Notes under the pieces: model-generated
What the model was told of the DNA's origin: nothing
Seen by the model: the letters and a program-made list of their open reading frames with translations, nothing else
Database searches by the model: none
In this document: one piece after another, positions 25,985 through 48,356 of the stretch
Layout: the number at the start of each line of letters is the position of its first letter
How positions within the stretch are numbered: the stretch's first letter is position 1
Position numbers and translations under genes: made by a program
Assembly (NCBI GenBank): GCA_041393815.1
Contig: JAWKJK010000006.1
Coordinates: forward strand, 19,002-83,001
From: Candidatus Nanopelagicales bacterium
GTDB taxonomy: Bacteria > Actinomycetota > Actinomycetes > S36-B12 > JAWKJK01
Direction of reading: 5' to 3'
DNA: 64,000 bases

Positions 25985-26198
25985 GGATCCGGAGTGTACG
26001 AGCCCCGCGGCCGGCGGCACCGACCGGCAGCGGTCGGCAGTGCGGCGACCGGCCTACCCGACCGGGGTACCCCCTGCCCACGGACCTGCGTCCCGGGGAC
26101 CTAGGCCCCTGGGCCCGGGACACCGGGACGACGGACCCTGGGGTTGGGACCGGGGTCGGCTGGTTCCGGTCCCACCTCCGGGAGAGGAGGTGAGACAG

Positions 26199-26795: not shown

Positions 26796-26867
26796 TCCGC
26801 GCGCGCAGAGACCGGCGCACGTGCACGGGAGGAGATGAGCGGATGGCAGAAAGCGCCGATCCCGGAG

Positions 26868-26895
26868 CCGTCCGGCCTGGCAGCGGGCCGGACGG
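26868..26895 (+). terminator. Perfect 10-bp stem hairpin between the repeat-protein gene and cbiM (terminator or attenuator candidate)
   Basis: CCGTCCGGCC (26868-26877), an 8-nt loop, then GGCCGGACGG (26886-26895). It is followed by the 12-nt palindrome CCGGGGCCCCGG (26902-26913). Confidence 0.4.
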
Positions 26896-26931
26896 TGCGT
26901 GCCGGGGCCCCGGAGCCGCGTAGGCCCGGGG

Positions 26932-26975
26932 CCTTGTTGCAAGGGACTTGCAGAAGCAAGGCGGCCGCATATCCT
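26932..26975 (+). promoter_or_regulatory. Candidate promoter (TTGCAG-N16-TATCCT) with two dyads, positioned for a leaderless cbiM transcript
   Basis: -35 TTGCAG (26948-26953) and -10 TATCCT (26970-26975). The GTG start at 26982 lies 6 nt after the -10. Dyads CCTTG-ttg-CAAGG (26932-26944) and CTTGC-agaa-GCAAG (26947-26960) overlap the -35. Confidence 0.35.
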
Positions 26976-26981
26976 GACCCG

Positions 26982-33593: not shown

Positions 33594-34940
33594 TCAGGCG
33601 TAGCGCTTCTGGACCAGGACCTGGGAGGTGATCGGCGGTCGGCGGCGCTGCAGCCCGAGCAGGATGCGCGTGCTCGTCAGCGGGGTCACCCGCGACAACC
33701 CGGCCACCCGGATCGACCCGGCCGTGCCGAAGGCGGCGTCCACCGCCCCCGTCGACTGCCGCAGCCGGGTCACCGTGTCCCCGTGGGCCAGGTACATGCG
33801 GTCGGCGGACCCGATGGACAGGGTCGCGAAGCTGCCGATGCCGGTCAGCTCCGCGCGCCCTGCGGTCCCGAAGCCGGGGTCGAACGTGCCGGAGGGGGTG
33901 AGGCGCGCGAGGAAGTCCGTGCCCGGGGCGCCGCCGGATCCCTGCTGCCAGCAGACGAGGTAGACGACGCCGGCCCGCGTGACGGTGATGTCCTCCACGG
34001 AGACGACCGCGTCGACCGCGGAGTAGTCGGCGTACCCGTCGACACCGAAGGCCCCATCGGGTCGGCCATCGGGCGAGAAGGCGATGACCCCGCCGGAGTC
34101 GTAGCTCATGGCCGCCGGCACGAAGACCCGTCCGTCCCGGGACGTCGCCATGGCGCCACAGCTGGCCTCGAACGACGTCGTCGTCGCATGCGTGTAGACG
34201 GCCACCCCGGGGACGCCGCTCGCGCCGTAGGTGGCCTCGATGCGCCCGTCGGCGCCGAACCCGACGAGGTACACCTCGCGGGCCCCGCCGATGCAGACGC
34301 GGGCACGTCCGTCCGGGAGCACGGCCATCTTCACCGAGCCACCGGCGCCGCTGTTGAGCGGACCGCTGCCCGGCAGGCTGGACAGCAGCGCGGAGTCGAT
34401 CACCGCGGAGTACGACCGGTCCCTGCGCCCGGTCTCGGTGACGCGGTAGATGCGGGCGCCGAGAAAGTCCCCGGTGTCGCCGGTGCCGACGAACAGGTAG
34501 GTCCGCGCCCGGTCGTCGCTGGCGACGGCGCCCAGGCCGGTACCGGGACCGGGAGAGCTGGACAGGACCTTCAGCAGGCGCGGCTTCCCGCCGTTGAAGG
34601 CGGTGTTGACCTTGCCGTTCGCGCGGTAGGCCCGCACGGTGATGACACCCTCGCTGGACTCGACCTCGGTCGGGTGCGACCCGGCCGTGACGACCCGGAA
34701 GCCGGTCCCGGGTCCGCGGAGCAGTCCGCCGAGGCGCTCGCCCCACTCCTGGTAGACCCCGGCGGTCAGGGGAACGACCAGCGTGCCCCGGCTCGCGAAG
34801 GTCCGGTCCAGCGTGCCCGGGGTGCCCGCGCCCGACGCGGGCGCGGAGAGGAGGGGGACCGTGAGCACCGCCGCCGCGAGGACTCCGATCGCCTTCCACC
34901 CTGCCGACTTCGTCCCTGCCGAACGCCGTGGCCTCGGCAT
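33594..34940 (-). CDS. Secreted beta-propeller-like protein with delta-60-type repeats
   Basis: Signal peptide present. The recurring 'G-x-(L/V/F)D-x-x-F-G-x-x-G' motif appears five times (GTLDRTFASRG, GKVNTAFNGG, GRPDGAFGVDG, GTFDPGFGTAG, GAVDAAFGTAG). Confidence 0.65.
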   Translation of the reverse strand: MPRPRRSAGTKSAGWKAIGVLAAAVLTVPLLSAPASGAGTPGTLDRTFASRGTLVVPLTAGVYQEWGERLGGLLRGPGTGFRVVTAGSHPTEVESSEGVITVRAYRANGKVNTAFNGGKPRLLKVLSSSPGPGTGLGAVASDDRARTYLFVGTGDTGDFLGARIYRVTETGRRDRSYSAVIDSALLSSLPGSGPLNSGAGGSVKMAVLPDGRARVCIGGAREVYLVGFGADGRIEATYGASGVPGVAVYTHATTTSFEASCGAMATSRDGRVFVPAAMSYDSGGVIAFSPDGRPDGAFGVDGYADYSAVDAVVSVEDITVTRAGVVYLVCWQQGSGGAPGTDFLARLTPSGTFDPGFGTAGRAELTGIGSFATLSIGSADRMYLAHGDTVTRLRQSTGAVDAAFGTAGSIRVAGLSRVTPLTSTRILLGLQRRRPPITSQVLVQKRYA

Positions 34941-35034: not shown

Positions 35035-35103
35035 GACTCAGCGCAGCGGGGAAGACTCAGCGCAGCGGGGAAGACTCAGCGCAGCGGGGGTGACTCAGCG
35101 CAG
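35035..35103. repeat. 19-bp tandem repeat (3.6 copies) GACTCAGCGCAGCGGGGAA overlapping the stop codon of the upstream membrane-protein gene
   Basis: Copies lie at 35035-35053, 35054-35072 (identical), 35073-35091 (2 changes) and 35092-35103 (partial). The last copy contains the stop (TCA 35095-35097) and the final codons of the 35095-37191 gene. Confidence 0.9.
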
Positions 35104-37191
35104 GTCGCGCAGCCAGTGCGCCCCCGCGCGGCCGAGGCCACGGACACTCTCCCAGCGGGCCCCGGCGAGCACGAGCAGACCGCCGGCCACCGCGAACGAC
35201 ACCCACTGCGGGAGGAACCTCCCGAGGTCGACCAGCTGCACCGCCGTCACCGCGACCAGCATCAGTGCCGCCGGGATGACGACCCCGGCCCAGCGGCGCC
35301 AGGCGCCGAGCACCACCAGGGCGGCGCCGACGACGAACAGCGCCGCAACCCGCACCTGGTAGGCGGTCGACACGGACCCGCCGTCGAGCGTCCACCGGGT
35401 CAGGGCGTCCTGGACCACGGCGATCGTCGTGGGGGCCAGGGCCAGTGCCAGGGCCGGGCCGACCACCGCCAGCGACGGCGTGCGGGCCGGACGGCGCAGC
35501 CACCAGAACAGCCCGCCGGACACCCCGGCGAGCACCCCCAGGGCCGCCCCCGCGATCTCCGGAGCCCAGGGGGTCTCGAGGTCGGCCAGCTGTCCCAGCG
35601 GCACCAGGGCGCCGACGAGCAGCCCGCCGGCCAGCCACACGCTCCACGCGGGGAGTGGGCGTCGCAGTGCCTCGCCCCACCCGGCCAGGCCCAGCAGTGT
35701 CAGCGCGATGACCGTCGCCCACAGGGCGGCGTCCGAAGTCGTCCCCTCCTGGCCGGGGACGGTGGCCATCAACCAGGCGAGCAGCCCGGCACCGGTGGCC
35801 ACCAGAGCGGCAAGCCCGCTGGCCCGACTCGACTCACGGGTCAGCTCGGCCAGCACCACGAGGACGGCGGACAGGGCGACCCCTGCGACCGCTCCGTTCC
35901 CTACCGCCGCGTCGATGGCCCAGGGGGCGGCCGCGAGGCCGACCGCCGTCCCGAGCGCGGCCGCGGCGACCAGGCTGAGCCAGGGGCGCAGGCCCGGGGG
36001 CGTGTGGGTGCGGGCCCACCACGCGACGCCGGCGACCGCGGCCAGCGCGAGCGCGGACCACGGACGGCTGCTCGGTTGGGCCACACCCGAGCCGAAGGCG
36101 ACCAGGGCGGCGACGGTGACCTGCACCGCCGCGGCGAGGGCCGGCTCGGGCCGGTGCTCCGGCAGCAGCCGGACCAGCAGCGCCGAGAGGGCGGCGAGCG
36201 CCAGCAGGACGGCCGAACCGACGAGCGGCCGGACCGCGTCCCCGACCGAGGCCTCGCCCGCGACGAAGACGGCAGCGGCGCCGGAGCCGACCAGCAGCGA
36301 CAGCGCGGCCAGTGCCGGCCAGGTCACCACGGGGTAGCGAGCGTGCAGCAGCAGCAGCCCGACACCGCCCAGGAGCAGGACCGCCGCGACCCACCACGCC
36401 CACGGCTCGGCCAGCGGCACTGCGGCGTCGGCCGGGGCGGACGCGAGCAGCCCCAGCGCGAGGGCCGCCCCGGTGAGGGCGGCGACCTCTCCCACGCCGC
36501 GCATCCGGGTGCGCAGCCACCCGCCGACCGCGGCCAGCAGGACCGCCGCAGCGAGGCTGGCCGCCAGGGACAGGGTCGGTCCCAGGGGGTCCGCGCCCAG
36601 GACCCGCGTGGCCACGCAGCCGACGGCGACGAGGAGCGCCCCGACGACGCCCAGCGTCGTGGCCGTTCCCGGGAGCCGCCGGTGCAGCCGCAGCCCCGCG
36701 AGCAGGGCCACCGCGCCGATGGCGTACAGCAGGCTCAGCTGACCGATCGGGCCGAGCAGGTCCCAGGCGACGGCCGCGAAGGCGATCCCGGCCAGCACCA
36801 GCAGCACGGCACCGCCGACGAGCAGCAGCGTCCCTACGCCCAGGGGCGGCGTGGGCGTCGCGGCGACGGTGGCGGGGGGCGCGCTCGGGGCCCCGGGCCG
36901 CATGGGCGTGACTGTCGGCACCGGCGTGACGGTCGGCATCGCGATGGCCCGCACCGACCAGTCGTCGGGGAGATCGTCGGAGGCGAGGCGGTCGCGCAGC
37001 CAGTTCGCCCGCGCCCGGGCCCAGTCCGCCCACGCTGTCAGGCCGCCCAGCTCGTCCAGCGCCGCGACGGGCATGGTCAGGGAGCACGACGGACAGGTGA
37101 CCGTCCCGGCCGGGGACGGGGAGGGCAGCGAGGCCCCGCAGCGCGCACACGTCAGCCCGGCGGCTGCCGGGCCCACACGCATCTCCGTCAT
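35095..37191 (-). CDS. Polytopic membrane protein with N-terminal zinc-ribbon (698 aa), family not recognised
   Basis: N-terminal CxxC-x17-CxxC (CARCG...CPSC) followed by ~18-20 Ala/Leu/Gly-rich hydrophobic segments. Confidence 0.6.
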   Translation of the reverse strand: MTEMRVGPAAAGLTCARCGASLPSPSPAGTVTCPSCSLTMPVAALDELGGLTAWADWARARANWLRDRLASDDLPDDWSVRAIAMPTVTPVPTVTPMRPGAPSAPPATVAATPTPPLGVGTLLLVGGAVLLVLAGIAFAAVAWDLLGPIGQLSLLYAIGAVALLAGLRLHRRLPGTATTLGVVGALLVAVGCVATRVLGADPLGPTLSLAASLAAAVLLAAVGGWLRTRMRGVGEVAALTGAALALGLLASAPADAAVPLAEPWAWWVAAVLLLGGVGLLLLHARYPVVTWPALAALSLLVGSGAAAVFVAGEASVGDAVRPLVGSAVLLALAALSALLVRLLPEHRPEPALAAAVQVTVAALVAFGSGVAQPSSRPWSALALAAVAGVAWWARTHTPPGLRPWLSLVAAAALGTAVGLAAAPWAIDAAVGNGAVAGVALSAVLVVLAELTRESSRASGLAALVATGAGLLAWLMATVPGQEGTTSDAALWATVIALTLLGLAGWGEALRRPLPAWSVWLAGGLLVGALVPLGQLADLETPWAPEIAGAALGVLAGVSGGLFWWLRRPARTPSLAVVGPALALALAPTTIAVVQDALTRWTLDGGSVSTAYQVRVAALFVVGAALVVLGAWRRWAGVVIPAALMLVAVTAVQLVDLGRFLPQWVSFAVAGGLLVLAGARWESVRGLGRAGAHWLRDLR

Positions 37192-37306
37192 ACGTCCAGC
37201 GTGATCGCCCCGCGGGTCCGGGGGTCAGGGCCAAAGGCTTCCGAAACGACTCAGCGCCCCCACCTCGAAGGGCGGGAGCGCCGGTCAGGCCGTCGATCAG
37301 AACGGG

Positions 37307-37357
37307 TGCGCCGCCAGGGACTCGAACCCCGAACCCGCGGATGAGGAGTCCGCTGCT
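37307..37357 (-). pseudogene. Truncated tRNA-Lys copy (3' 51 nt only: anticodon stem to acceptor 3' strand)
   Basis: Identical to tRNA-Lys positions 40278-40328 except for 2 substitutions in the anticodon loop (CTCCTCA vs CTCTTAA). No complementary 5' acceptor strand (GCGCCGC) exists upstream. Confidence 0.85.
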
Positions 37358-37631: not shown

Positions 37632-40187
37632 ATGCCGTCGATGGTGGCTGGGCCGGGCTGGGGTGTCGGCGTCCGTCGGGTGGTGGCGGCCGTGTCCGCT
37701 GTCGGGCTGGCTGCTGGGCTGATGGTGGGGACCGCGGGTGCCGCGTCCGCGGCCACGTTCACGGTGACCAACCTGAATGACTCGGGAGCGGGCTCGCTGC
37801 GGCAGGCGATACTCGACGCGAACGGTTCTCCTGGTGCCGACATCATCACGTTCGCAGTGACGGGCACGATCACCTTGAGCAGCGGTGAGTTGTGGGTGCA
37901 GCCCGGGGGGCTCACGATCCAGGGTCCGGGAGCGGGCCAGTTGATCATCGATGGGAACAACGCCACCAGGGTGCTGCTCATCGATGCTGGGAGCACGTCG
38001 GCTCTTGCCGGGGTCACCATCAGACGCGGCAGCACATCGGCCGAGTTCACCCAAGTGGGCGGTGGCATCTTGAACCTGGGCACGTTGTCGGTGACCGACT
38101 CCGTGATCTCCGGCAACTCCGCCGGCGTTGGCGGAGGCATGGCCAACACCGGCACGGCGACGGTGACCGACTCCGTGATCTCGGGAAATCTCGCGTCCAG
38201 TGGCGGAGGCATCAACAACGCCGGCACGGCGACGGTGGTCAACTCCGTGATCTCCGGAAACACCGCCGGCGTTGGCGGAGGCATGGCCAACACCGGCACG
38301 GCGACGGTGACCGACTCCACGATCTCCGCGAACAGCGCAACCAACGCCGGTGGCATCGACAACACCGACACGCTGTCGGTGACCGACTCCACGATCTCCG
38401 GGAATACAGCTGCTCTCGCGGCCGGTGGCATCTGGAACAGAGACCCGGCCAGCACGGCGACGGTGACCGACTCCACGATCTCCGGGAACACCGCCGACAG
38501 TGGCGGAGGCATGACCAACACCGGAACGGCGACGGTGACCGACTCCACGATCTCCGGGAACTCGGCCACCACCGCAGGCGGCGGCGTCTTCAATACCGGA
38601 ACGGCGACGGTGACAGCCTCCACGATCTCCGGGAACTCGGCCACCACCGCAGGCGGCGGCGCCTACAACATCGGCACGGCGATTGTGCGTGGCTCGATCG
38701 TCGCGAACAGCGTGGGTGCGGATTGCTCCGGACCAGTGCTCTGGCTCGGGGTGAACCTGGTCGAGGACGGTTCGTGTTTGCCACCGCCGGGAACGTTGAC
38801 CGGTGATCCAGATCTGTTTGGCTTGGACGACTACGGGGGGCCGACGAAGACTCTGCTGCCGAAGCCGGGCAGTCCTGTCGTTGACGCCGGTGGTCCGACC
38901 TGTGCGACGGCGGCGGATCAGCGGGGTGAGCCGCGTCCGCAGGGGATGGGCTGTGACCTGGGATCGGTGGAAACCCAGCCGGGCCCGTTGGCGTTCACCA
39001 GCGGGGCCTTCGGAGCCACCACGGTCGGGACAGCGGCACCGCTGTCGGTGACGGTGACCAACCCGGACACCGCCGAGACCAAATCGGTGCCGTCGACCAT
39101 CACCGCTACCGGTTCGGGCGTGACCGTGACCGGGGGAACCTGCTCGGTGGGCACCCCGATCCCCGTGGCCGGGGCGTGCACGGTGCTCTTGGCCTGGTCC
39201 CCGACCTCCGCTGGGGCCCTGTCCGGGGCTGCCTTGACCATCGGCTACCCGGTCGGGAACAGCGACACCCTCCCGTTGACCGGCACCGCGACCGCTGTCA
39301 TCCCACCTGTTGCGCTGACCGTGCCGGGCCCACCCACAGGAGTGACCGCCGCGCCGGGTGACGGCAAGGCCACGGTGTCGTGGACCGCGCCTGGATCCAA
39401 CGGCGGGTCGGCGATCACCGGGTACGTGGTCCAGCAGTCCGTCGACGCCGGCACCACCTGGACCGCCGCGGCCGGCTCCCCCGCCGCAGCGACCGCGACC
39501 TCGCTGACCGTGACCGGGCTGACCAACGGCATCAACGTGTCCTTCCGCGTCGCGGCGACCAACGCCGTCGGCCAAGGCCCCTGGTCCGCCCCTTCGGTCC
39601 CTGTGACTCCGGCCTCGGGCGCGGGACCGACGCCTCCGCCCGGCACGGCCACGGTGACGGTCACCTCACCGGCGGCGAGTGGGTCGCAGATCTCCAGCAA
39701 CGGCTACTTCGGGGTCTCCGCCACCAGCACCGGCATCCCCGCCGGCACCACCGCCTACGTCACCCTCAACGGATCCGCCAAGGCCTCCACCACCGTGCAA
39801 GCCGGCGGCGCCATCCGCTTCGACGGCACCCCCATCGGCGGCAACCAGTGGATCCCCGCCGAGACCGGTACCTACGCCGTACGCATCGGCGGCGGCGGCG
39901 GCAGCCCCGTGCTGGCCACCTCCAGCACCTTCACCCTGGTGATCATCCCGTTCGGGCTCAACGGACGGAACGGCAACCGGTACACCGTGCTGCCGGGCAA
40001 CTTCTCCCCCGGCACCACCGTGTACCTGACCCGCAACTCCGCCACCGTGGCCTCGGGCAAGGTCCAGACCAAGGAACAACCCTTCACCATCACCGGCCCC
40101 ACCACACCAGGCACCTACCAGATCTGGGTCGCCTCCAACCAAGGCCGCGTCTACGGCGACCACGCCGGAGTCATCACCATCCGTTAG
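37632..40187 (+). CDS. Secreted right-handed beta-helix repeat protein (CSLREA-like N-terminus / choice-of-anchor-Q-like) with Ig-like, FN3 and C-terminal beta domains
   Basis: Signal peptide ...GTAGAASA. Contains 'TNLNDSGAGSLRQAILDAN'. About 10 rungs of 'GGG(M/I)xNxGTATVTDSxISGN' follow, then 'DDYGGPTKTLLPKPGSPVVDAG...DQRGEPRP...CDLGSVE' and FN3 'PTGVTAAPGDGKATVSWTAPGSNGGSAITGYVV'. Confidence 0.8.
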   Translation: MPSMVAGPGWGVGVRRVVAAVSAVGLAAGLMVGTAGAASAATFTVTNLNDSGAGSLRQAILDANGSPGADIITFAVTGTITLSSGELWVQPGGLTIQGPGAGQLIIDGNNATRVLLIDAGSTSALAGVTIRRGSTSAEFTQVGGGILNLGTLSVTDSVISGNSAGVGGGMANTGTATVTDSVISGNLASSGGGINNAGTATVVNSVISGNTAGVGGGMANTGTATVTDSTISANSATNAGGIDNTDTLSVTDSTISGNTAALAAGGIWNRDPASTATVTDSTISGNTADSGGGMTNTGTATVTDSTISGNSATTAGGGVFNTGTATVTASTISGNSATTAGGGAYNIGTAIVRGSIVANSVGADCSGPVLWLGVNLVEDGSCLPPPGTLTGDPDLFGLDDYGGPTKTLLPKPGSPVVDAGGPTCATAADQRGEPRPQGMGCDLGSVETQPGPLAFTSGAFGATTVGTAAPLSVTVTNPDTAETKSVPSTITATGSGVTVTGGTCSVGTPIPVAGACTVLLAWSPTSAGALSGAALTIGYPVGNSDTLPLTGTATAVIPPVALTVPGPPTGVTAAPGDGKATVSWTAPGSNGGSAITGYVVQQSVDAGTTWTAAAGSPAAATATSLTVTGLTNGINVSFRVAATNAVGQGPWSAPSVPVTPASGAGPTPPPGTATVTVTSPAASGSQISSNGYFGVSATSTGIPAGTTAYVTLNGSAKASTTVQAGGAIRFDGTPIGGNQWIPAETGTYAVRIGGGGGSPVLATSSTFTLVIIPFGLNGRNGNRYTVLPGNFSPGTTVYLTRNSATVASGKVQTKEQPFTITGPTTPGTYQIWVASNQGRVYGDHAGVITIR
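38079..38712 (+). repeat. Tandem ~60-66 bp coding repeats (beta-helix rungs)
   Basis: Recurrent 'ACGGCGACGGTGACCGACTCC(A/G)(C/T)GATCTCCGG(G/A/C)AAC' blocks are visible at ~38157, 38292, 38455, 38527 and 38599. Confidence 0.8.
39342..40181 (+). repeat. Left arm of a ~0.8-kb inverted repeat (3' end of the beta-helix gene)
   Basis: Encodes an FN3 plus C-terminal module nearly identical to the reverse complement of 43027-43836. Protein alignment shows scattered substitutions and one ~10-aa indel (ASGAGPTPPPGT). Confidence 0.85.
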
Positions 40188-40232
40188 ACCAGGTCAGCGC
40201 CAGGACGCGCGTCCCCCAGCCCACTCATGCGA

Positions 40233-40269
40233 ACGGCCCCTGGCTGCGTCGTCGCAGGTCAGGGGCCGT
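40233..40269. terminator. Strong compound hairpin between the beta-helix gene stop and the tRNA-Lys 3' end
   Basis: ACGGCCCCTG (40233-40242) pairs with CAGGGGCCGT (40260-40269). The inner stem is CTGCG-tcgt-CGCAG (40244-40257). Confidence 0.6.
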
Positions 40270-40277
40270 ATCACGGG

Positions 40278-40350
40278 TGCGCCGCCAGGGACTCGAACCC
40301 CGAACCCGCGGATTAAGAGTCCGCTGCTCTGCCAGTTGAGCTAGCGGCGC
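40278..40350 (-). tRNA. tRNA-Lys (anticodon CUU)
   Basis: The reverse complement reads GCGCCGC-TA-GCTC-AACTGGCA-GAGC-A-GCGGA-CTCTTAA-TCCGC-GGGTT-CGGGG-TTCGAGT-CCCTG-GCGGCGC-A, a 73-nt cloverleaf. CCA is not encoded. A TAGATT -10 candidate (complement of 40360-40365) lies 9 nt upstream. Confidence 0.9.
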
Positions 40351-40444
40351 GTGGCGCAGAATCTAGCACCCGGTCGGTGGGACCGGGAAATCGCGCAGAC
40401 GACTACACAGAGCGACCGAACCGCGTCGGCGTTGAGGTGCGGGC

Positions 40445-40591
40445 TCAGTGCACCCGCATCCTCCGCTGCCGCTCGGACTCGAGGATCTCCTCCGAGCGCG
40501 GGCCGGTCGGGTCAGCCAGATCCATGAGGAGCGTCAGCGGGATTCCGCTGCGCAGCAACCTCATGACGTCTACCCCCGAGTTCTGCGCCAT
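40445..40591 (-). CDS. Small hypothetical protein (48 aa) downstream of pxpC
   Basis: ATG 40591 is preceded by GGAGG (8 nt). Sequence: MAQNSGVDVMRLLRSGIPLTLLMDLADPTGPRSEEILESERQRRMRVH. The longer 90-aa track ORF extension lacks an SD. Confidence 0.4.
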   Translation of the reverse strand: MAQNSGVDVMRLLRSGIPLTLLMDLADPTGPRSEEILESERQRRMRVH

Positions 40592-40682
40592 TCTGGTCAC
40601 CTCCGCGGTCACACCCCTCTTGTCGGTCCCGCGCAGGCCCGGTTGGTGGGCCGAAAGGGTGATTCTCGCCACGGGGCTGTGG

Positions 40683-41555
40683 TCAGCGCTGCGTGACCAC
40701 GAGGCGGACCCGGTCACCCGACCGGAGCTGGGCGCAGCGGTCCTGGTCGGCCTCGCGCAGCACGGCTACCACCGGGTAGCCGCCGGTCGTCGGGTGGTCC
40801 GGCCCCATGATCACCGGGGTCCCGTCCGGGGGCACCTGCAGCGCGCCGCGGACCAGCGGTTCCGACGGCAGCTCCCCGGTGACGACCCGCTCCAGGGCGG
40901 GCCCCGTCAGCCGGATGCCGACGCGGTCCGATCGGGTGGACACCTCGTACGTGGCGGCGCCGAGCAGAGCCCGCGCCCCGTCGGTGAACCAGTCCCAGCG
41001 CGGCCCGGGGAGGGCCGCGAGCGGGACCGGCTCGCCGTACGCGGGGACCGGGACGTGGTCCACCGCCGGGACCGGGCCGACCGCGGCGCCGACCGGCAGG
41101 CGGCCGCCGGCCGTCAGCGGCTCCGGTCCGAGGCCGGCCAGGGTGTCCCGGCTGCGCGACCCCAGCACCGGCGGGACGGACAGCCCGCCGCGCACGGCGA
41201 CGTACGCCCGCAGCCCGGACGCGGCCGGGCCCAGGACGAGGACCTGACCGGGCGCGACGGTGAGCGGGGTGCCCCGGTCCACGGCCCGGTCGTCGACGGT
41301 GAGCGCTCCGCGGCACCCGGTCACCGCGACCGTCACCGGGGCGTCCACCGCCCGGACAGCGAGACCGCCGAGCAGGCACTCCAGCCCGGCGGCACCCTCA
41401 GGGTTGCCGACCAGCCGGTTGGCCAGCCGCAGCGCGGCCCGGTCGTACGCCCCGGACGCGGTCACGGCCAGCCTCCCCAGGCCCGGCCGGCCCAGGTCCT
41501 GCACCGTGGTCAGCGGTCCGGCCGAGACCACCTCCAGCGCCGCGCGCGCGGTCAC
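40683..41555 (-). CDS. pxpC: 5-oxoprolinase subunit PxpC (KipA / allophanate hydrolase subunit 2 family)
   Basis: 'LEVVSAGPLTTVQDLGRPG...GVTASGAYD', plus operon context with pxpA and pxpB and a 4-nt overlap. Confidence 0.85.
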   Translation of the reverse strand: MTARAALEVVSAGPLTTVQDLGRPGLGRLAVTASGAYDRAALRLANRLVGNPEGAAGLECLLGGLAVRAVDAPVTVAVTGCRGALTVDDRAVDRGTPLTVAPGQVLVLGPAASGLRAYVAVRGGLSVPPVLGSRSRDTLAGLGPEPLTAGGRLPVGAAVGPVPAVDHVPVPAYGEPVPLAALPGPRWDWFTDGARALLGAATYEVSTRSDRVGIRLTGPALERVVTGELPSEPLVRGALQVPPDGTPVIMGPDHPTTGGYPVVAVLREADQDRCAQLRSGDRVRLVVTQR

Positions 41556-42178
41556 CCGTCGTCCCGGGGCACGAACCGCACCCTCGTCCCCGGCTCCAGG
41601 ACCGCGGGGCGCCGTCGCCGCTCGTCGAACAGGGCCACCGTCGTGGTGCCCAGCAGCCGCCAGCCCCCCGGGGACTCGCGCGGGTAGACCGCGGCGTACG
41701 TCGACGCGATCGCCACGGCGCCGCGGGGCACCCGGGTGCGCGGGGTGGGCAGCCTCGGTACGTGCAGCGCCGGGTCGAGTCCGGTCAGGTACGCGAACCC
41801 GGGCGCGAAGCCGCAGAAGGCCACCTCGTACTCGACGGCGGTGTGCGCTTGCACCACCTCGGTCGGCGTGAGCCGGGAGAGCCGGGCCACCTCGGTGAGG
41901 TCCGGGCCGTCGTAGGCCACCTCGATCTCGACCAGGTGGCGCACGGCCTGCGCGCGGGGTAGCGGTCTCAACCCGGCCAGCGCACCCGCGACCGCGTCCA
42001 CCGAGGCCCGGCGTCGGTCGACGCGGACCAGGACGGTACGCGCGCCCGGGACCGACTCCACGACCCCGGCCAGCAGCCCCGACCCGACGGCGTCCTCGAG
42101 CGCGCGGACCAGGTCATGGACGTCCTCGTCGGTCTCCAGCAGCACCGCGGACTCGCCGTACGGGAGCACCCGGGTCAT
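41552..42178 (-). CDS. pxpB: 5-oxoprolinase subunit PxpB (KipI / allophanate hydrolase subunit 1 family)
   Basis: ATG 42178 overlaps the pxpA stop (ATGA). Contains 'VLPYGESAVLLE...', 'FCGFAPGFAYL' and 'RTRVPRGAVAIA'. The 464-aa track ORF is an out-of-context extension over pxpA. Confidence 0.85.
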   Translation of the reverse strand: MTRVLPYGESAVLLETDEDVHDLVRALEDAVGSGLLAGVVESVPGARTVLVRVDRRRASVDAVAGALAGLRPLPRAQAVRHLVEIEVAYDGPDLTEVARLSRLTPTEVVQAHTAVEYEVAFCGFAPGFAYLTGLDPALHVPRLPTPRTRVPRGAVAIASTYAAVYPRESPGGWRLLGTTTVALFDERRRRPAVLEPGTRVRFVPRDDG

Positions 42179-42954
42179 GGCCGCCGCGCAGGGGGAGGGG
42201 CGAACGCCTCCAGGGCGACACCGGCAGCGGTCAGGGCGGTATGGATCGCCCGGGCCAGGTCGACGGCCCCCGGGGTGTCCCCGTGCAGGCACACGCTGCG
42301 GGCGTCCACGCGCACGTCGGCGCCGTCGACCGTGCGGACGGCGCGCTCGGAGGTGAGCCGCAGCACCCGCAGGACCACTTCGTGCCGATCGGTGACGACG
42401 GAGGCGTGGTGGGTGCGCGGCAGCAGTCGGCCCTCGCGGGTGTAGGCGCGGTCGGCGAAGGCCTCGCCCACCGCGTGCATGCCGCGCTCCCGGGCGGCGG
42501 CCGCGAGCGCCGAGCCGGGCAGGGTCAGGAGGGGCAGCCGCTCGTCGTACGCGGCCACGGAGGCGACCACGGCGGCGGCGACCCGGTGCTCGGTGGCGGC
42601 GGCGTGGTAGAGCGCTCCGTGCGGCTTCACGTACGTGACCGCCGTGCCGGCGGCGCGGGCGTGCTCGTCGAGGGCGGCGAGCTGGTCGGTCAGCTGCGCG
42701 ATCAGCGTCGCCGCCGAGACGTCGACGTGGCGCCGACCGAATCCCTCGCGGTCGACGTACGAGACCTGGGCGCCGACCGCGACACCGGACTCGGCGGCGG
42801 CGACGCAGACCCGACGCATCGACACGGCGTCGCCGGCGTGGCCGCCGCACGCGACGTTGGCACTGGTGACCACGGTCAGCAGCGCGGCATCCACCTCGGC
42901 GCCGAGGGATCCCTCGAGCTCGCCGAGGTCGGCGTTGAGGTCCCACACGGCCAC
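42175..42954 (-). CDS. pxpA: 5-oxoprolinase subunit PxpA (LamB/YcsF family)
   Basis: 'DLNADLGE', 'NVACGGHAGD' and 'VKPHGALY' are LamB/YcsF signatures. Confidence 0.9.
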   Translation of the reverse strand: MAVWDLNADLGELEGSLGAEVDAALLTVVTSANVACGGHAGDAVSMRRVCVAAAESGVAVGAQVSYVDREGFGRRHVDVSAATLIAQLTDQLAALDEHARAAGTAVTYVKPHGALYHAAATEHRVAAAVVASVAAYDERLPLLTLPGSALAAAARERGMHAVGEAFADRAYTREGRLLPRTHHASVVTDRHEVVLRVLRLTSERAVRTVDGADVRVDARSVCLHGDTPGAVDLARAIHTALTAAGVALEAFAPPPARRP

Positions 42955-43020
42955 GGTCCGACCGTACCCCGCGTGGGGACGGCCGGACCGTGGCCGATCA
43001 GCTCGCCGGCTGCGCTGTTG

Positions 43021-44973
43021 TCAGGGGATGGTGATGACGCCGGCGTGGTCGCCGTAGACGCGGCCTTGGTTGGAGGCGACCCAGATCTGGTAGGTGCCTG
43101 GTGTGGTGGGGCCGGTGATGGTGAAGGGCTGTTCCTTGGTCTGGACCTTTCCGGAGGCGACGGTGGCGGAGTTGCGGGTCAGGTACACGGTGGTGCCGGG
43201 GGAGAAGTTGCCCGGCAGCACGGTGTACTTGTTGCCGCTGCGGCCGTTGAGGCCGAACGGGATGATCACCAGGGTGAAGGTGCTGGAGGTCGCCAGCACG
43301 GGGCTGCTGCCGCCGCCGATGCGCACGGCGTAGGTGCCGGTCTCGGCGGGGATCCACTGGTTGCCGCCGATGGCTGTGCCGTCGAAGCGGATGGCGCCGC
43401 TGGCTTGCACGGTGGTGGAGGCCTTGGCGGATCCGTTGAGGGTGACGTAGGCGGTGGTGCCGGCGGGGATGCCGGTGCTGACCGCGGAGACCCCGAAGTA
43501 GCCGTTGCTGGAGATCTGCGACCCGCTGGCCGCCGGTGAGGTGACGGTCACGGTGGCGCCGGCGCCGGGGGTGACCGGGACCGAGGGGGTGGAGTACGGG
43601 CCCTGCCCGACGGCGTTGGTCGCCGCGACGCGGAAGGACACGTTGATGCCGTTGGTCAGGCCGGTGACCTCCAGGGAGGTCGCGGTCGGACCGGCGGGGG
43701 AGCCGGCCGCGGGGGTCCAGGTGGTGCCGGCGTCGACGGACTGCTGGACCACGTACCCGGTGATCGCCGACCCGCCGTCGGATCCAGGCGCGGTCCACGA
43801 CACGGTGGCCTTGCCGTCACCCGGCGCGGCGGTCACCCCCGTCGGCGCACCGGGCACCGACGCGGGGATCGAGCAGGTGAAGCCGGCCGGGACCGTGTCG
43901 TAGTACTGGATCACACCGTCCGCCCACTGGTCCCAGCCGTAGGCGATCGGGTGGTACCAGGTCGACACCTCGTAGCCGGAGGTGAAGGGCTTGACGAACC
44001 AGGCGTTGCTGTTGTCGGCCCCGGAATTCGCGTTGAGTTCGTGGCCTGCGAAGACCTCCCGTGCCACGTCGCTGTAGTACGTACGGGGGGTGCACCAACC
44101 GCCGTTCATCGCTGCGATGACCTGACGCTGAACTTCGCTGCCAGCGTCCCCGAGTTGCCTCACTGCGGCGTTCGCGTTGTAGGTGCCAAGCATGAGCGGC
44201 ACGTTTGGGGCCAAGTACGGGTAGCCCTCGTAGATCAGGACGGCGTCCGGGCGCATCCTGGCCCGCACCGCCCGAAGCGTGTCCAGAACCGCGGTCTTCA
44301 ACGCGGGGAGCTTGCTCTGTGCGGCGTTCACCGCGTTCTCGCAGTTAGTTGCGCTTTGGAAGACGAAGCACCACTCCACGATTGTGCTGAAGCCGATGTC
44401 GTTGCCGCCGATCGTCAGCAGGACCACATCGGCGGTGGTGTCCACAGCGTCGATCTGCGGCTCCATGTAGGGGCTGCACAGGATGGTCCCGGTGGCTTCC
44501 CGGGTGGTGGAGTTGAAGTCGAACGACTGCGCGCTGTAGCTGTATCTCTCGTCGGGCAGGCTCGGCGTCGGGCAGACGTCGTTCTGCTCCGCGAGGGCGA
44601 CATAGTCCGCCTCGGTGAAGGTGCCGGAACCCGGGATGGTCTGGTTGAAGGGCACCTGCGGCTTGGTGATGTCCACTCCGGACAGCACATACGTGCCGGT
44701 GATGTTGGCGGTCACCGCCCCGCTGCAGGCCCGGTTCACGTAGGTCGCGCCCTGGGACGCGGCGAACTGGCCGCCCCAGTTCATCGGGCTGCGGAAGCAG
44801 TCGTTGTTCGCCGGGACGTAGTCCTGGGTGCCGTTGCCCGCGGAGTAGGAGTCGCCGAGTTGGACCACCTTCTGCACCGGCGGCCCGGCGGCGGCCGGTC
44901 CGGCGCTGGCAACGACGGCGGGCGCACTGACCGCGACCAGGAGGGTGGCGAGCAGGGCCATGCGTGTTCTCAC
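43021..44973 (-). CDS. Secreted SGNH/GDSL hydrolase with FN3 and the same C-terminal beta module as the beta-helix protein
   Basis: GTG 44973 (or ATG 44961) gives the signal peptide RTRMALLATLLVAVSAPAVVASA. Block I 'LGDSYSAGNG' and block III 'IGGNDIGF'. The C-terminal ~270 aa are nearly identical to those of the 37632-40187 product. A hand-counted GC sample (44341-44400) is ~53%. Confidence 0.8.
   Translation of the reverse strand: MRTRMALLATLLVAVSAPAVVASAGPAAAGPPVQKVVQLGDSYSAGNGTQDYVPANNDCFRSPMNWGGQFAASQGATYVNRACSGAVTANITGTYVLSGVDITKPQVPFNQTIPGSGTFTEADYVALAEQNDVCPTPSLPDERYSYSAQSFDFNSTTREATGTILCSPYMEPQIDAVDTTADVVLLTIGGNDIGFSTIVEWCFVFQSATNCENAVNAAQSKLPALKTAVLDTLRAVRARMRPDAVLIYEGYPYLAPNVPLMLGTYNANAAVRQLGDAGSEVQRQVIAAMNGGWCTPRTYYSDVAREVFAGHELNANSGADNSNAWFVKPFTSGYEVSTWYHPIAYGWDQWADGVIQYYDTVPAGFTCSIPASVPGAPTGVTAAPGDGKATVSWTAPGSDGGSAITGYVVQQSVDAGTTWTPAAGSPAGPTATSLEVTGLTNGINVSFRVAATNAVGQGPYSTPSVPVTPGAGATVTVTSPAASGSQISSNGYFGVSAVSTGIPAGTTAYVTLNGSAKASTTVQASGAIRFDGTAIGGNQWIPAETGTYAVRIGGGSSPVLATSSTFTLVIIPFGLNGRSGNKYTVLPGNFSPGTTVYLTRNSATVASGKVQTKEQPFTITGPTTPGTYQIWVASNQGRVYGDHAGVITIP
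43027..43836 (-). repeat. Right arm of the ~0.8-kb inverted repeat (3' end of the SGNH hydrolase gene)
   Basis: Its reverse complement matches 39342-40181. Identity stops at the last sense codon (ATC ACC ATC then CCC TGA vs CGT TAG). Confidence 0.85.
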
Positions 44974-45172
44974 GGGAGAGACTCCGAGGGGATGCAGGAT
45001 TTTGTCGACCCCCGCCACCCCGCCGTGGAGGAGCAACCGCCGGGCGCCGCCCCACCCGGTCGATGAGGCGCGCCGAACGTAACACGCCCCCGCCGCGTGG
45101 GCCGGGGAGCGCCTCGCGGGTGAACGATGGTGACCGGGCCGCCGCAGAGCAGACAGAAGGGGACGTGCACCG

Positions 45173-45910
45173 ATGGAGCTGACCCGGGTGCGTCGGGATG
45201 CGCGCGACTGGCCGCAGGACCAGCTCGAGGCCCTGTTCCGTGACGGCTTCCCCCCGTTCATCGTCGCGGATGTCGACGCCGAGCGGATGCTGCCGGAGAT
45301 CGGGGAGTCCTTCGCCGACCTTGACGTCTTCCTGCTCGACGGCGACGGGGTCGTCGTTGCCGGCGGGTGGGGAGTCGCGCTGGGGTGGGACGAGAGCGTC
45401 GAGGACCTGCCGACCGGCTACACCGACAGCCTGCGCCGGGCGCTGCGCGACCGCGCGGACGGGCGCGCACCCGACACCTTCGTGCTGTGCGCCGGCATCG
45501 TGCGCCCGGACCGGCACGGACGCGGACTCGCGGCCGACCTGGTCACCTCGTTGTGCGACCTGGCGGAGGAGCGGGGCCTGGCCCAGGTGATCGCGCCCGT
45601 GCGCCCCACCCTCAAGCCGCGCTACCCGCTTACGCCGATCGACGAGTACGTCACCTGGACCCGGGAGGACGGGTCACCGCTGGACCCCTGGCTCCGCACC
45701 CACCTGCGGATCGGGGGCCGGATCCTCGCCACCGCACCACGTTCGCAGGTCATGACCGGGACCGTCGCTCAGTGGGAGGGGTGGTGCTCGATGGCGTTTC
45801 CCGCCAGCGGCGACTACGTGATCCCCGACGGCCTGAGCGTGCTCACGGTCGACCGTGACCAGGACCTCGGCACGTACGTGGAGCCCAACGTCTGGGTGCG
45901 GCACCGCTGA
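45173..45910 (+). CDS. Putative GNAT-like N-acetyltransferase
   Basis: 245 aa. The 'GIVRPDRHGRGLAADLV' stretch resembles GNAT motif A (Q/RxxGxG/A). Otherwise weakly recognisable. Confidence 0.5.
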   Translation: MELTRVRRDARDWPQDQLEALFRDGFPPFIVADVDAERMLPEIGESFADLDVFLLDGDGVVVAGGWGVALGWDESVEDLPTGYTDSLRRALRDRADGRAPDTFVLCAGIVRPDRHGRGLAADLVTSLCDLAEERGLAQVIAPVRPTLKPRYPLTPIDEYVTWTREDGSPLDPWLRTHLRIGGRILATAPRSQVMTGTVAQWEGWCSMAFPASGDYVIPDGLSVLTVDRDQDLGTYVEPNVWVRHR

Positions 45911-45932
45911 CGCGGTCGGCCCTCTGGACGAC

Positions 45933-46499
45933 CTACGAGAACGACACCTGCGGGGGTTGCTCGTTGCCGAACGGGGCCTCGTAGAAGTCCCGCTTGGACA
46001 CGTTGGCCATGCCGGCGAAGAACATCCACGGAATGGTCGATACCAGCGTGTTCAGCGTGGCTGCGGCGTCGTTGTAGTACTGCCGGGCGAACGCGAGCTG
46101 GTTCTCGGTGTCGGTGAGCTGGTTCTGCAGGCCGACGAAGGACGCCGACGCCTTGAGGTCGGGATAGTTCTCCGCCACCGCCATCACGTTGACCAGGGCC
46201 TTGTCCAGCCGGGCCTCCGCCGCCGCCTTCTGCTCGACCGTCCCCGACTTCGCCGCCTGCGTCACGCCGGTGCGCGCCGCGGTGACCTCCTCGAACACCG
46301 ACTTCTCGTGCGAGGCGTAGCCCTTCACCGTCTCGACCAGGTTGGGGACCAGGTCGGCGCGGCGGGTCAGCTGCACGTCGATGCCGCCCAGCGCCTCGTC
46401 CGCGCGGACGTCCGCCTTGCGCAGCCGGTTGAAGCCGACCACGAAGAAGACCACCGCTGCCACGACCAGCAGCAGGATCACGAGCAGAACCACCGTCAT
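45933..46499 (-). CDS. lemA: LemA family protein
   Basis: N-terminal TM followed by 'FNRLRKADVRADEALGGIDVQLTRRADLVPNLVETVKGYASHE', the LemA signature. Confidence 0.9.
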   Translation of the reverse strand: MTVVLLVILLLVVAAVVFFVVGFNRLRKADVRADEALGGIDVQLTRRADLVPNLVETVKGYASHEKSVFEEVTAARTGVTQAAKSGTVEQKAAAEARLDKALVNVMAVAENYPDLKASASFVGLQNQLTDTENQLAFARQYYNDAAATLNTLVSTIPWMFFAGMANVSKRDFYEAPFGNEQPPQVSFS

Positions 46500-46538
46500 G
46501 CCGGTCCGCCTCCCGTTCCAGGTGCACTCATCGCCGGC

Positions 46539-48356
46539 TCACCACGAGCCGCCGCCACCGCCGCCGCCACCGCCACCGAAGCTCCCGCCGCCACCACCGC
46601 CGCTGCTCGACGACTGGGACGCCTGGTAGGTGCTGATGGACGCGGACAGCGTGCTGTCGAAACTGTCGAACCCCCCGCCGGAACTGTAGGGGCTGTATCC
46701 CATCGCGTAGGGGTACCAGTACGGGATGGGCGGCTCCTGGCCGGTCGCCATCCGGTACTTCTCCGCCCACCGGTCGGCGACGCCGTACGCGACCGCATAG
46801 GGCACGTACGCGATGAAGAGGTCCTGGCGCGCCGCGAAGTCGAACCGGTCCTCCGCGGAGTCGGTGGACAGCAGCCGGCGGAATCCGCCGGCGCGCGACC
46901 ACAGGTCGCGACCGGTGCGGGTGCGGCGGCGGCCGACGCCGGGTCGCAGCAGGCCGAGTCCCACGATGGCGAACACGGCGAACGGCAGGCCCCACATCGA
47001 CGGGCCGAGCCAGGTGAGGAAGCCCAGGACGGCCAGCGGCAGGCTGGCCAGCCAGGCCACCCGGCCCCACGTCTCGAACGGCGCCGAGGCCACGAAGCCG
47101 GAGCGGCGGCCCCAGTCCCGGGCCGACGCCGCGATCGCGGACTGCGCCTCCGACAGCGTCTCTCCCGAGGACTTGGTCCGGTCGGCCAGGAACCACCCGC
47201 CCGGGGTCGTCACACCCAGCTTCGCGCCCAGGGTCTGGCTGACGTCGTCGAAGACGGACCACTGGTCCGGCGTCGTGAGCCCGCGGATCAGCCAGGACTG
47301 GTCCGGTCGGTGCTCCAGCGTCACCAGCCGCCGGTCGGCCAGGTACAGCAGGGAGGCGGTCAGCGCGTGGTCGCCGGTGTCCTCGGTGTCGATGTAGACC
47401 GTCTCGACCGGTCCCAGGCCCGGCGGCGGCGCGTACTGGACGGGGAAGCCGGGCGGCTCCTCCCGGGTCGACCGGACCCAGACCAGTGCCAGGGCACCGG
47501 ACACCAGGCACAGCAGCAGCACGAACAGGGCGGCCGGCACCGAGCGACCGAGCACCCCGTCCCACAGGACCGACCACGGCAGCTCCACCCGTGGCGGCGT
47601 GGCGATCGGGAGGCTGACCCGGGTCGTCATCCCGCTGTTCGCGGGCAGGGAGTTGGCGCGCAGCGTCACCTCGCGGGTGCCGGCGCCGGTGATCTCGCAG
47701 GGCCGCTGCGCGACCCGGGTTCCGTCGCTGGTGCCGCCCGCCGTGCACTGCACCACGCCGGAGTCCGCGGGCAGCTGGATCCGGATGCGCGCCTGCTCGA
47801 TGCGCATCTGCCAGCCCTGTGCCACGACGTTCCAGAAGAACACGCTGCCGGGCGCGACGACGTTCGTCCCGTCGCTGGACACGAACTGCCCGGTGCCCGC
47901 GGTCGGCGGCGACAGCGCACCGTCGACGGTGTAGGTGATCCGGTAGACGTGCGATCCCGGGCTGACGTAGACGTCCGGGTCACCGATCTTCGCCACGAAG
48001 TAGCGGTCCCCGTAGTCCCAGTAGGTCTCGTACGGGACCGAGCGGCCGTCCATGGTGATGCTGACGAGGTTCGGGATGTAGCGGGCGTGCGGGTCGGCGG
48101 GGTCCACCACGTCCCAGAAGCGGAAGATGCCGTGCCGCAGCGCGGGGAACTGGGCGGTGATGTCCTCGGTGGCCGTGAGCCGGCCGTCGGCGGCCACGAC
48201 GTACTGCGCGTCGTACGTGGTGATCACGACCGGGTCGTAGACGGCGCCCTGGTCGACCCCGGCCGACAACTGGTGGAGGACTGGCCACAGCAGGCCGGCC
48301 GCCGCGGCCAGCAGCAGCACGATGCGCATGAGCACGCGCCCGAACAACCGCCCCAC
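46539..48356 (-). CDS. DUF2207 domain-containing membrane protein with Gly-rich C-terminal tail
   Basis: Signal/TM, a large N-terminal ectodomain, 3-4 TMs and the tail 'SSSSGGGGGGSFGGGGGGGGGGSW'. The pairing with lemA is canonical. Confidence 0.8.
   Translation of the reverse strand: MGRLFGRVLMRIVLLLAAAAGLLWPVLHQLSAGVDQGAVYDPVVITTYDAQYVVAADGRLTATEDITAQFPALRHGIFRFWDVVDPADPHARYIPNLVSITMDGRSVPYETYWDYGDRYFVAKIGDPDVYVSPGSHVYRITYTVDGALSPPTAGTGQFVSSDGTNVVAPGSVFFWNVVAQGWQMRIEQARIRIQLPADSGVVQCTAGGTSDGTRVAQRPCEITGAGTREVTLRANSLPANSGMTTRVSLPIATPPRVELPWSVLWDGVLGRSVPAALFVLLLCLVSGALALVWVRSTREEPPGFPVQYAPPPGLGPVETVYIDTEDTGDHALTASLLYLADRRLVTLEHRPDQSWLIRGLTTPDQWSVFDDVSQTLGAKLGVTTPGGWFLADRTKSSGETLSEAQSAIAASARDWGRRSGFVASAPFETWGRVAWLASLPLAVLGFLTWLGPSMWGLPFAVFAIVGLGLLRPGVGRRRTRTGRDLWSRAGGFRRLLSTDSAEDRFDFAARQDLFIAYVPYAVAYGVADRWAEKYRMATGQEPPIPYWYPYAMGYSPYSSGGGFDSFDSTLSASISTYQASQSSSSGGGGGGSFGGGGGGGGGGSW

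Follow-up and report, generated by a model that had tools for sequence, protein, structure and literature searches.

Our analysis of a 64,000-nucleotide window of a metagenome-assembled genome (MAG) of Candidatus Nanopelagicales bacterium (assembly GCA_041393815.1, contig JAWKJK010000006.1, positions 19,002 to 83,001 of the forward strand) shows that its large inverted repeat, the sole repeat longer than 60 nt at such identity in this stretch, reflects at the DNA level a single protein module that two convergent genes share, a routine by-product of domain shuffling. Gene A codes for a secreted beta-helix protein and gene B for a secreted GDSL/SGNH hydrolase, and both end in the same tail, made of a fibronectin type III (FN3) domain, a linker and a twin beta-sandwich. 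The twin beta-sandwich belongs to no catalogued family and is rare, occurring in only a handful of actinobacterial genomes and metagenome contigs affiliated with Nanopelagicales. We consider it probable that the tail serves as an address tag that has been shuffled within the lineage onto these two passengers and that its two copies have been partly homogenized by gene conversion. The features on which this reading rests are the following (coordinates in the window):

37632-40187, + strand: gene A, secreted beta-helix protein of 851 aa, a 100% match to the NCBI MAG protein P0001
43021-44973, - strand: gene B, secreted GDSL/SGNH hydrolase P0121 (MEZ5117692.1), 650 aa
39321-40182, + strand: left arm (FN3, linker and beta-module of gene A), with near-identity from 39342
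43026-43857, - strand: right arm (FN3, linker and beta-module of gene B), with near-identity up to 43836
39321-39622 with 43556-43857: inverted block 1, 89% complementary
39648-39902 with 43303-43557: inverted block 2, 95% complementary
39890-40182 with 43026-43318: inverted block 3, 96% complementary
39330-39599, + strand: FN3 of gene A (PF00041, residues 583-672 of an 867-aa open reading frame (ORF), 44.2 bits, E 2.3e-11)
43579-43848, - strand: FN3 of gene B (PF00041, residues 472-561 of a 746-aa ORF, 43.5 bits, E 3.7e-11)
39621-39647, + strand: Pro-rich linker insertion of 27 nt (9 aa), present in the left arm only according to the arm alignment
39648-40184, + strand: twin beta-sandwich module of gene A, 179 aa in two halves of ~89 aa
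43024-43557, - strand: twin beta-sandwich module of gene B, 178 aa

The repeat search of the window resolved the inverted repeat into the three collinear blocks listed above, and the arms differ at 60 of 834 ungapped columns (92.8% nucleotide identity). When the full proteins were compared by BLASTP, their tails were 90.6% identical over 288 aa and no similarity was detected outside them, the N-terminal parts being unrelated. In the MAFFT alignment of the arms, near-identity sets in abruptly at 39342 (GTGACCGCCGCG, peptide TGVTAAPGDGKATVSW, that is, TGVTAAPG), and a weaker homology, diverged mostly at synonymous sites, extends ~20 nt further 5' (39318-39341), such that the onset of similarity lies in the linker preceding the FN3 domain. 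At the other end, similarity stops at a shared ATC codon, one codon ahead of the last sense codons, which are unlike (CGT/R in gene A and CCC/P in gene B) and are followed by different stops (TAG vs TGA); downstream of the stop codons, MAFFT found no alignment between the two sides. The repeat search, MAFFT and BLASTP all agree with a preliminary description, made from the DNA letters, which had reported near-identical C-terminal tails on two unrelated secreted enzymes arranged as an inverted repeat, and the domain and tRNA gene calls agree with its statement that the arms bracket a tRNA-Lys gene and pxpABC. Two of its details need amending: the single indel of ~10 aa is present but corresponds to one of 9 aa plus a second of 3 nt (1 aa), and the similarity does start abruptly but ends one codon short of the last sense codon, to which it had been extended.

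The layout of gene A comprises a signal peptide, a CSLREA-like N-terminus, beta-helix coils, a choice-of-anchor Q domain, an Ig-like domain, FN3, linker and twin beta-sandwich. Its coils correspond to eight to nine tandem units of 72 nt (24 aa) at 38047-38667, with the pattern GGG(I/M)xNxGTATVTDSxISGNxA, and the choice-of-anchor Q assignment (NCBIfam NF041518, 60.2 bits for a cut-off of 25, residues 408-465 of the 867-aa ORF) agrees with the NCBI name of P0001, a protein from a 211,770-bp contig of a “Candidatus Nanopelagicales bacterium” MAG. In homologues of this beta-helix the C-terminal additions are many and varied, with dockerin, PKD, Big and DUF11 domains among them. Gene B codes for a signal peptide, a GDSL domain with the motif GDSYSAGNG, FN3, a short linker and the twin beta-sandwich module. 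It scores 43.7 bits with Lipase_GDSL_2 (PF13472, cut-off 32.9), as expected of an SGNH/GDSL hydrolase, and its nucleophile-Ser block VVQLGDSYSAGNG, the only catalytic block examined, directly follows the signal peptide. The signal peptides of these and the other carriers of the module were assigned by eye, and both FN3 domains exceed the Pfam PF00041 cut-off of 25 bits. Both proteins would be secreted by the Sec route, each with an N-terminal passenger of its own, after which FN3 would serve as a spacer and a linker rich in Pro and Gly leads to the beta-sandwich pair at the C-terminus.

The 179-aa module that follows FN3 in gene A matched nothing in Pfam, NCBIfam (reporting limit for both, E <= 1) or PDB sequences beyond noise (GxPGS_dom, 11.8 bits; bMG6, 14.8 bits), and a profile of the module retrieved one PDB sequence only, a transthyretin-like protein (E 0.0038). 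None of the Pfam carbohydrate-binding module (CBM) families was matched, nor were the NCBIfam/Pfam models of known sorting or anchor domains, such as the C-terminal domain (CTD) of the type IX secretion system (T9SS), PEP-CTERM, LPXTG and GlyGly-CTERM. Neither the module nor the gene A passenger nor any of the left-flank ORFs matched a PHROG. The repeat search revealed an internal repeat of ~89 aa in the module and, in agreement with it, AlphaFold2, with an alignment of 24 sequences, produced a confident model of two beta-sandwiches (mean predicted local distance difference test, pLDDT, 94.1; predicted template modeling score, pTM, 0.81), all-beta, with 17 strands and no helix as long as four residues, a structure prediction that the preliminary description had called for. 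The gene A protein ends in a predicted beta-strand (...GVITIR) without a hydrophobic tail. Foldseek retrieved 36 PDB matches at E <= 1e-3, nearly all tandem beta-sandwiches of Ig/FN3 type, at TM-scores of only 0.25-0.38; among solved structures, the model comes closest to the tandem Ig/FN3 pairs found in adhesins (the Bap BSP domain and MpIBP) and to the Fn3-like modules of CbhA. The model predicts, therefore, an Ig-like/FN3-like beta-sandwich fold that belongs to no specific family. An isopeptide (CnaB-like) reading of the module was dropped, the candidate Lys (in AKA) not being conserved in distant members.

When 1.84 billion representative proteins were searched exhaustively with HMMER, there were 30 hits, about 25 of them with the whole module, which is strictly C-terminal in all 24 full-length matches (envelopes end 0-3 residues and alignments 0-6 residues from the protein end). 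A profile scan of 185,579 species-representative genomes found one other genome with the module, a second Nanopelagicales MAG; a genome scan with a single module sequence found no match, and a scan of JGI metagenomes no relatives. A word-index protein search was excluded as evidence of rarity since it missed the 100% identical P0001 and known carriers and, when run with the 24-sequence profile, returned three short distant proteins, none of them a known carrier. Negative results of that search are unreliable for the low-complexity Gly/Thr/Ala-rich composition of the module. Its passengers include a trypsin-like protease, an RCC1 propeller, GLUG repeats, many stacks of Big_1 type and a choice-of-anchor-type beta-helix with TIG and I-set domains; a beta-helix-plus-module protein (P0132) also occurs in another organism. 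The loop between the two sandwiches contains a Gly run (RIGGGGGSP) in A, B and the further carrier P0122, and two Cys (RICGGxCGP; alignment columns around RICGGSCGPV) in P0123-P0127, which could form a disulphide-stapled loop in that subgroup only. In the other Nanopelagicales MAG, one module gene ends 148 nt ahead of a tRNA-Gly gene (L001 9734-9805) and a second lies 2.3 kb from tRNA-Glu and tRNA-Gln genes (L002 12861-13076); this proximity of module genes to tRNA genes may be a coincidence.

Within this MAG, the module is present on no fewer than seven secreted proteins: the beta-helix protein P0001, the GDSL hydrolase P0121, a trypsin-like protease (P0125) and four bacterial-Ig stacks (P0122, P0123, P0124 and P0126). 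All seven are annotated at NCBI as “MAG: Candidatus Nanopelagicales bacterium”, with R2737_ locus tags shown for P0122, P0123 and P0126, and the carrier contigs measure 211,770 bp, 311,328 bp and 1,200,850 bp. Their modules fall into two groups that cut across passenger type. The first contains A, B and P0122 (MEZ5115423.1), an Ig stack on another contig (88-96% amino acid identity), and the second the Ig stacks P0123, P0124 and P0126 with the protease P0125 (65-96%); identity between the two groups is 55-66%. The P0122 module is 88-89% identical to those of A and B but its protein does not share their FN3. Because P0122 shares the beta-module without FN3, units of different extent appear to have moved, in frame, at linkers: an FN3-plus-module unit would link A and B, and the module alone would link both to P0122. 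Recombination at linker boundaries that preserved the reading frame would have transferred the module from gene to gene. The preliminary description had proposed module shuffling and suggested looking for the module on other secreted proteins; shuffling proves to be recurrent, the beta-module being present on at least five further secreted proteins of this MAG. It had also considered that the A/B identity might be the mere baseline of a widespread family, a view at odds with the 55-66% identity of other copies in the same genome. A second close pair is provided by P0123 (MEZ5117573.1) and P0124 (MEZ5117570.1), which lie on the 311-kb contig with accessions three apart and are probably encoded by near neighbors. 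Their modules are 96% identical, whereas the Ig repeat just upstream is only ~60% identical.

Despite their near-identity, the arms are old paralogues, both under purifying selection, and not a fresh duplication. Nei-Gojobori counts on shared codons gave 35 synonymous and 20 non-synonymous differences, with a synonymous divergence (dS) of 0.171 (0.23 in FN3 and 0.14 in the beta part), a non-synonymous divergence (dN) of 0.035 and a ratio of ~0.2, which implies that both copies are kept by selection. With a dS of this size, against 99.7-100% identity for population variants from other samples, the split is not a very recent one, and the term “recent” used in the preliminary description for the shuffling holds only in a relative sense. 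The differences are concentrated at the 5' edge of the arms (39318-39341) and just 5' of the 27-nt indel (39572-39617), with identical tracts of 89, 79, 69 and 65 nt between clusters. Their index of dispersion is 2.8 for all sites, a value reached by none of 10,000 permutations, and 2.4 for third codon positions, reached by about 1 in 10,000. Patchy gene conversion fits this pattern because silent differences cluster where homology ends and at the heterology, and it is suggestive of conversion tracts that fail at the arm edge and at the indel. The A and B copies would then have been partly homogenized by conversion that neither reached the arm edge nor crossed the 27-nt indel. Likewise, 96% identity in each of two close pairs, set against 89% for a distant copy, is the pattern expected of proximity-dependent gene conversion, although a series of recent module replacements would give a similar 96%/96%/89% pattern. 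Gene conversion, the other process invoked in the preliminary description, is thus plausible in view of the clustered third-codon differences and the second pair P0123/P0124, without being proven by them.

Alternatively, FN3 and the module might have been duplicated or transferred only once, with no conversion afterwards, the uneven differences simply marking faster-evolving linkers. The tree ((A,B),P0122) and the dS of 0.17 fit such a history, and the differences cluster in linkers and at edges, which also have an excess of non-synonymous changes. Relaxed protein constraint, however, offers no explanation for the clustering of synonymous third-position differences (p about 1e-4), and a second neighboring pair shows the same module-only near-identity. 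We regard a one-off event as doubtful, though it deserves to be taken seriously.

The other possible origin of the left arm concerns the tRNA-Lys gene that lies next to gene A. This gene and the remaining features between the arms or beside gene A are as follows:

40276-40350, - strand: tRNA-Lys (anticodon CTT), called by ARAGORN and by Rfam (tRNA, 65.3 bits)
37302-37357, - strand: tRNA-Lys 3' remnant (53 nt), a direct repeat of 40273-40328 (54/56 identical)
42175-42954, - strand: pxpA (Pfam LamB_YcsF, E 2.6e-83)
41552-42178, - strand: pxpB (Pfam CT_C_D, E 8e-61)
40683-41555, - strand: pxpC (Pfam CT_A_B, E 9.5e-82)

The 3' end of tRNA-Lys lies 88 nt past the gene A stop codon, in convergent orientation. 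The remnant, which neither ARAGORN nor Rfam called as a tRNA, spans the gene from the anticodon stem to the 3' end, with both mismatches in the anticodon loop (CTCTTAA -> CTCCTCA). The intact gene and the remnant bracket, in an attL/attR-like manner, a 2.9-kb interval that holds gene A alone. Integrative elements at tRNA genes generate attL and attR from the duplicated 3' part of the tRNA gene, and Williams is said to have distinguished sublocation classes of such sites (Nucleic Acids Res, 2002). The interval resembles these integration sites in its direct repeat from anticodon stem-loop to 3' end and in having an intact tRNA gene on one side and a fragment on the other, and differs from them in its small size of 2.9 kb, its single gene and the lack of an integrase. 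As a tRNA-integrated islet it has the flanking direct repeat but not the internal mobility genes: Pfam and PHROG searches detected no integrase or mobility gene within the 2.9-kb interval or within about 10 kb.

Gene A, module included, may accordingly have been inserted at tRNA-Lys, next to gene B, by an integrative element coming from a close relative. Apart from the 56-nt direct repeat, which brackets gene A as attL and attR would, this scenario can draw on composition and on the existence of the beta-helix-plus-module protein P0132 in another organism. G+C content at third codon positions (GC3) is 0.835 in the N-terminal part of gene A (37632-39317), 0.907 in the A arm and 0.95 in the B arm, compared with 0.93-0.96 in neighboring genes, and synonymous differences between the arms have the A/T-ending codon in A 12 times and in B 3 times. 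By contrast, the absence of an integrase or mobile-element gene from the islet and from about 10 kb around it, the need for a very close relative as donor of a lineage-restricted module, and the near-identity of P0122 on another contig, which insertion leaves unexplained, all speak against it. We deem such an insertion unlikely; the gene A interval would at best be the remnant of a decayed integrative element, and an inserted left arm would leave the nature of the inverted repeat unchanged. Two protein genes lie directly to the left of the tRNA remnant, one coding for a polytopic membrane protein of 698 aa whose N-terminus shows a CxxC…CxxC motif resembling a zinc ribbon (35095-37191, - strand) and the other for a 448-aa protein (33594-34940, - strand), both without Pfam or PHROG match.

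The interval between the arms is occupied, besides tRNA-Lys, by three adjacent genes predicted to code for the 5-oxoprolinase PxpABC. They start 67 nt downstream of gene B, and gene B, pxpABC and tRNA-Lys are co-directional while genes A and B converge. The ~330 nt between pxpC and tRNA-Lys contain no convincing gene, and Rfam at a permissive threshold called only tRNA-Lys over 36.5-46 kb. Further to the left, the ORF at 25905-26795 (+ strand) ends in four to five tandem repeats of 66 nt (26490-26819; 22-aa unit …SLAMEHLAQAPIPWVG…), which form the C-terminus of a small protein without Pfam match, probably membrane-anchored; directly downstream of it lies a fused CbiM-PDGLE-CbiQ cobalt-transporter gene (26835-28778).

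In principle, the geometry of the arms makes possible a crossover, such as the RecA-mediated one envisaged in the preliminary description, that would invert 40183-43025 (2.8 kb), swapping the distal parts of the arms and leaving both ORFs intact; pxpABC would then follow gene A rather than gene B. The identical tracts (89, 79, 69 and 65 nt) are long enough for homologous recombination, which the 7% divergence would depress. Seen from this side, the segment might be a programmed switch, akin to an inverton or shufflon, that flips tRNA-Lys and pxpABC or exchanges C-terminal cassettes, since the ORFs stay in frame and pxpABC can be placed downstream of either gene. This is highly improbable. No recombinase domain occurs among the 19 neighboring main ORFs scanned (25.9-52.9 kb), so that the hallmark of site-specific invertible elements, short sites with an invertase or integrase nearby, is not found here; the arms are 0.85-kb coding sequences that have diverged by 7%, instead of short recombinase sites; the cassettes to be swapped are functionally near-identical; and independent contigs all match the window where they overlap it. 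Nothing indicates that the 2.8-kb inversion is used, and a programmed switch is unlikely. If the repeat is instead the by-product of domain shuffling, its inverted orientation and the tRNA-Lys and pxpABC genes enclosed by it would be incidental.

The independent contigs also bear on the integrity of the assembly. Logan contigs retrieved via LemA, pxpB and pxpC from more than 10 sequencing runs (DRR4384xx, SRR32022213, SRR28338171/2, SRR36351797, ERR159765xx) are 99.7-100% identical to the window; four of them (L006, L007, L009 and L010) together lie within 40319-46857. L009 covers 40319-43069, is identical in 9 samples and has the same pxp gene calls, L006 and L007 end at 43807, and L010 reproduces 41062-43516 at 100%, including 491 nt at the proximal end of the right arm that are purely B-type. 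Because these contigs stop inside the arms (~31-50 nt into them, or 491 nt into the right arm for L010) or 32 nt into the tRNA gene, and none bridges a whole arm, they confirm the repeat but not its orientation, which for the interior rests on the single MAG assembly. An artefact, whether from collapse or duplication of a repeat or from chimeric joining, had been envisaged at the outset: the contig does come from a metagenome bin, and the short-read Logan contigs break at the arms. Nevertheless, more than 10 independent runs yield the flanks, the interior and half of the right arm (491 nt) at 99.7-100% identity, and 60 substitutions and two in-frame indels separate the arms, which belong to two intact ORFs under purifying selection; this makes misassembly improbable in the extreme.

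Concerning function, the tail would most likely be a common address tag that tethers various enzymes and adhesins to the cell surface or to a polymeric ligand common to them. An anchoring or targeting role is suggested because a strictly C-terminal fold, preceded by an FN3 spacer in A and B, occurs on many unrelated Sec-secreted passengers of one lineage. Like known sorting and anchor domains, it is always found at the very C-terminus of diverse signal-peptide-bearing passengers, and by this analogy the tail may be regarded as a lineage-specific surface-retention or ligand-targeting module. The preliminary description had spoken of a “surface-anchoring or substrate-binding” module, a notion that still derives from position and fold. 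A bolder and quite unlikely version would see the tail as the recognition domain of an undescribed, lineage-specific surface-display or sorting route, a monoderm counterpart of the T9SS CTD and the version used by this lineage of the exchangeable anchors found on choice-of-anchor proteins, with copies kept uniform by conversion to suit one receptor or processing enzyme. Several points weigh against the combination of shuffling, conversion and address tag that we favor. The clustering of differences could stem from local heterogeneity of mutation or selection instead of conversion tracts, and what looks like concerted evolution may go back to a single duplication. Given the tRNA bracketing and the low GC3, a mobile element may have brought in the left arm, which would then not stem from local copying. 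Finally, the proposed function of the tail is deduced solely from its position, its fold and the variety of its carriers, and the analysis turned up no ligand, binding residues or partner gene.

The novelty of these results is modest and consists of an uncatalogued, lineage-restricted family of C-terminal twin beta-sandwiches together with hints of concerted evolution restricted to a module. The carriers of this family, in a small set of uncultured actinobacteria, span all sorts of secreted proteins, from a protease and a lipase/esterase to a beta-helix protein and adhesin-like Ig stacks. If the tail is indeed a surface-retention or targeting tag, the module defines an exposed “surfaceome” and gives a handle on the matching receptor or ligand. 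The locus would also offer a natural example of module-restricted gene conversion, with two such pairs in one genome, and is useful for studying how 7% divergence affects inversion between inverted paralogues.

We found nothing specific in the literature on comparable cases, but three known systems share part of these traits. The NCBIfam “choice-of-anchor” names refer to interchangeable C-terminal anchors, such as T9SS CTD, PEP-CTERM, LPXTG and dockerin. Like these sorting domains, the module is strictly C-terminal and is found on many unrelated secreted passengers within one lineage, and the gene A passenger itself belongs to a choice-of-anchor family (NF041518). The T9SS CTD is a folded C-terminal sorting domain (PMC11982257). 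The module is, similarly, a folded beta-sandwich and not a transmembrane-helix signal, but it is twice the size of that domain and its host is an actinobacterium, in which no T9SS is expected. It further differs from sorting domains in having no match to known models, no transmembrane-plus-basic tail and no identified partner sorting enzyme.

Concerted evolution and inversion between paralogous repeats are familiar in bacteria from rrn operons, tuf genes and insertion sequence (IS) copies. The A/B arms have in common with them segments a few kb apart that are far more similar than the family baseline, patchy differences and invertible intervening DNA. Unlike in rrn operons and tuf genes, conversion would here be limited to one module of otherwise unrelated genes; the divergence of 7% is much higher than between those copies, and in our case conversion is deduced from sequence alone and inversion is a mechanical possibility.

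FN3 domains have spread among bacterial glycohydrolases. A third system is that of actinobacterial and other bacterial depolymerases with FN3-linked C-terminal CBMs such as CBM2 or CBM5/12 (Hansen 1992, FEBS Lett 305:91, cited in PMC7410926). Our module departs from these in lacking a CBM, Pfam or NCBIfam match and a known ligand, in being a fused sandwich pair, and in occurring also on a protease, RCC1, GLUG and Ig stacks, which are not obviously polysaccharide enzymes. Nevertheless, the overall plan is the same, with a signal peptide, a catalytic domain, an FN3 spacer and a C-terminal beta-sandwich, and in both cases one tail is found on unrelated enzymes of a genome and is exchanged at linker boundaries.

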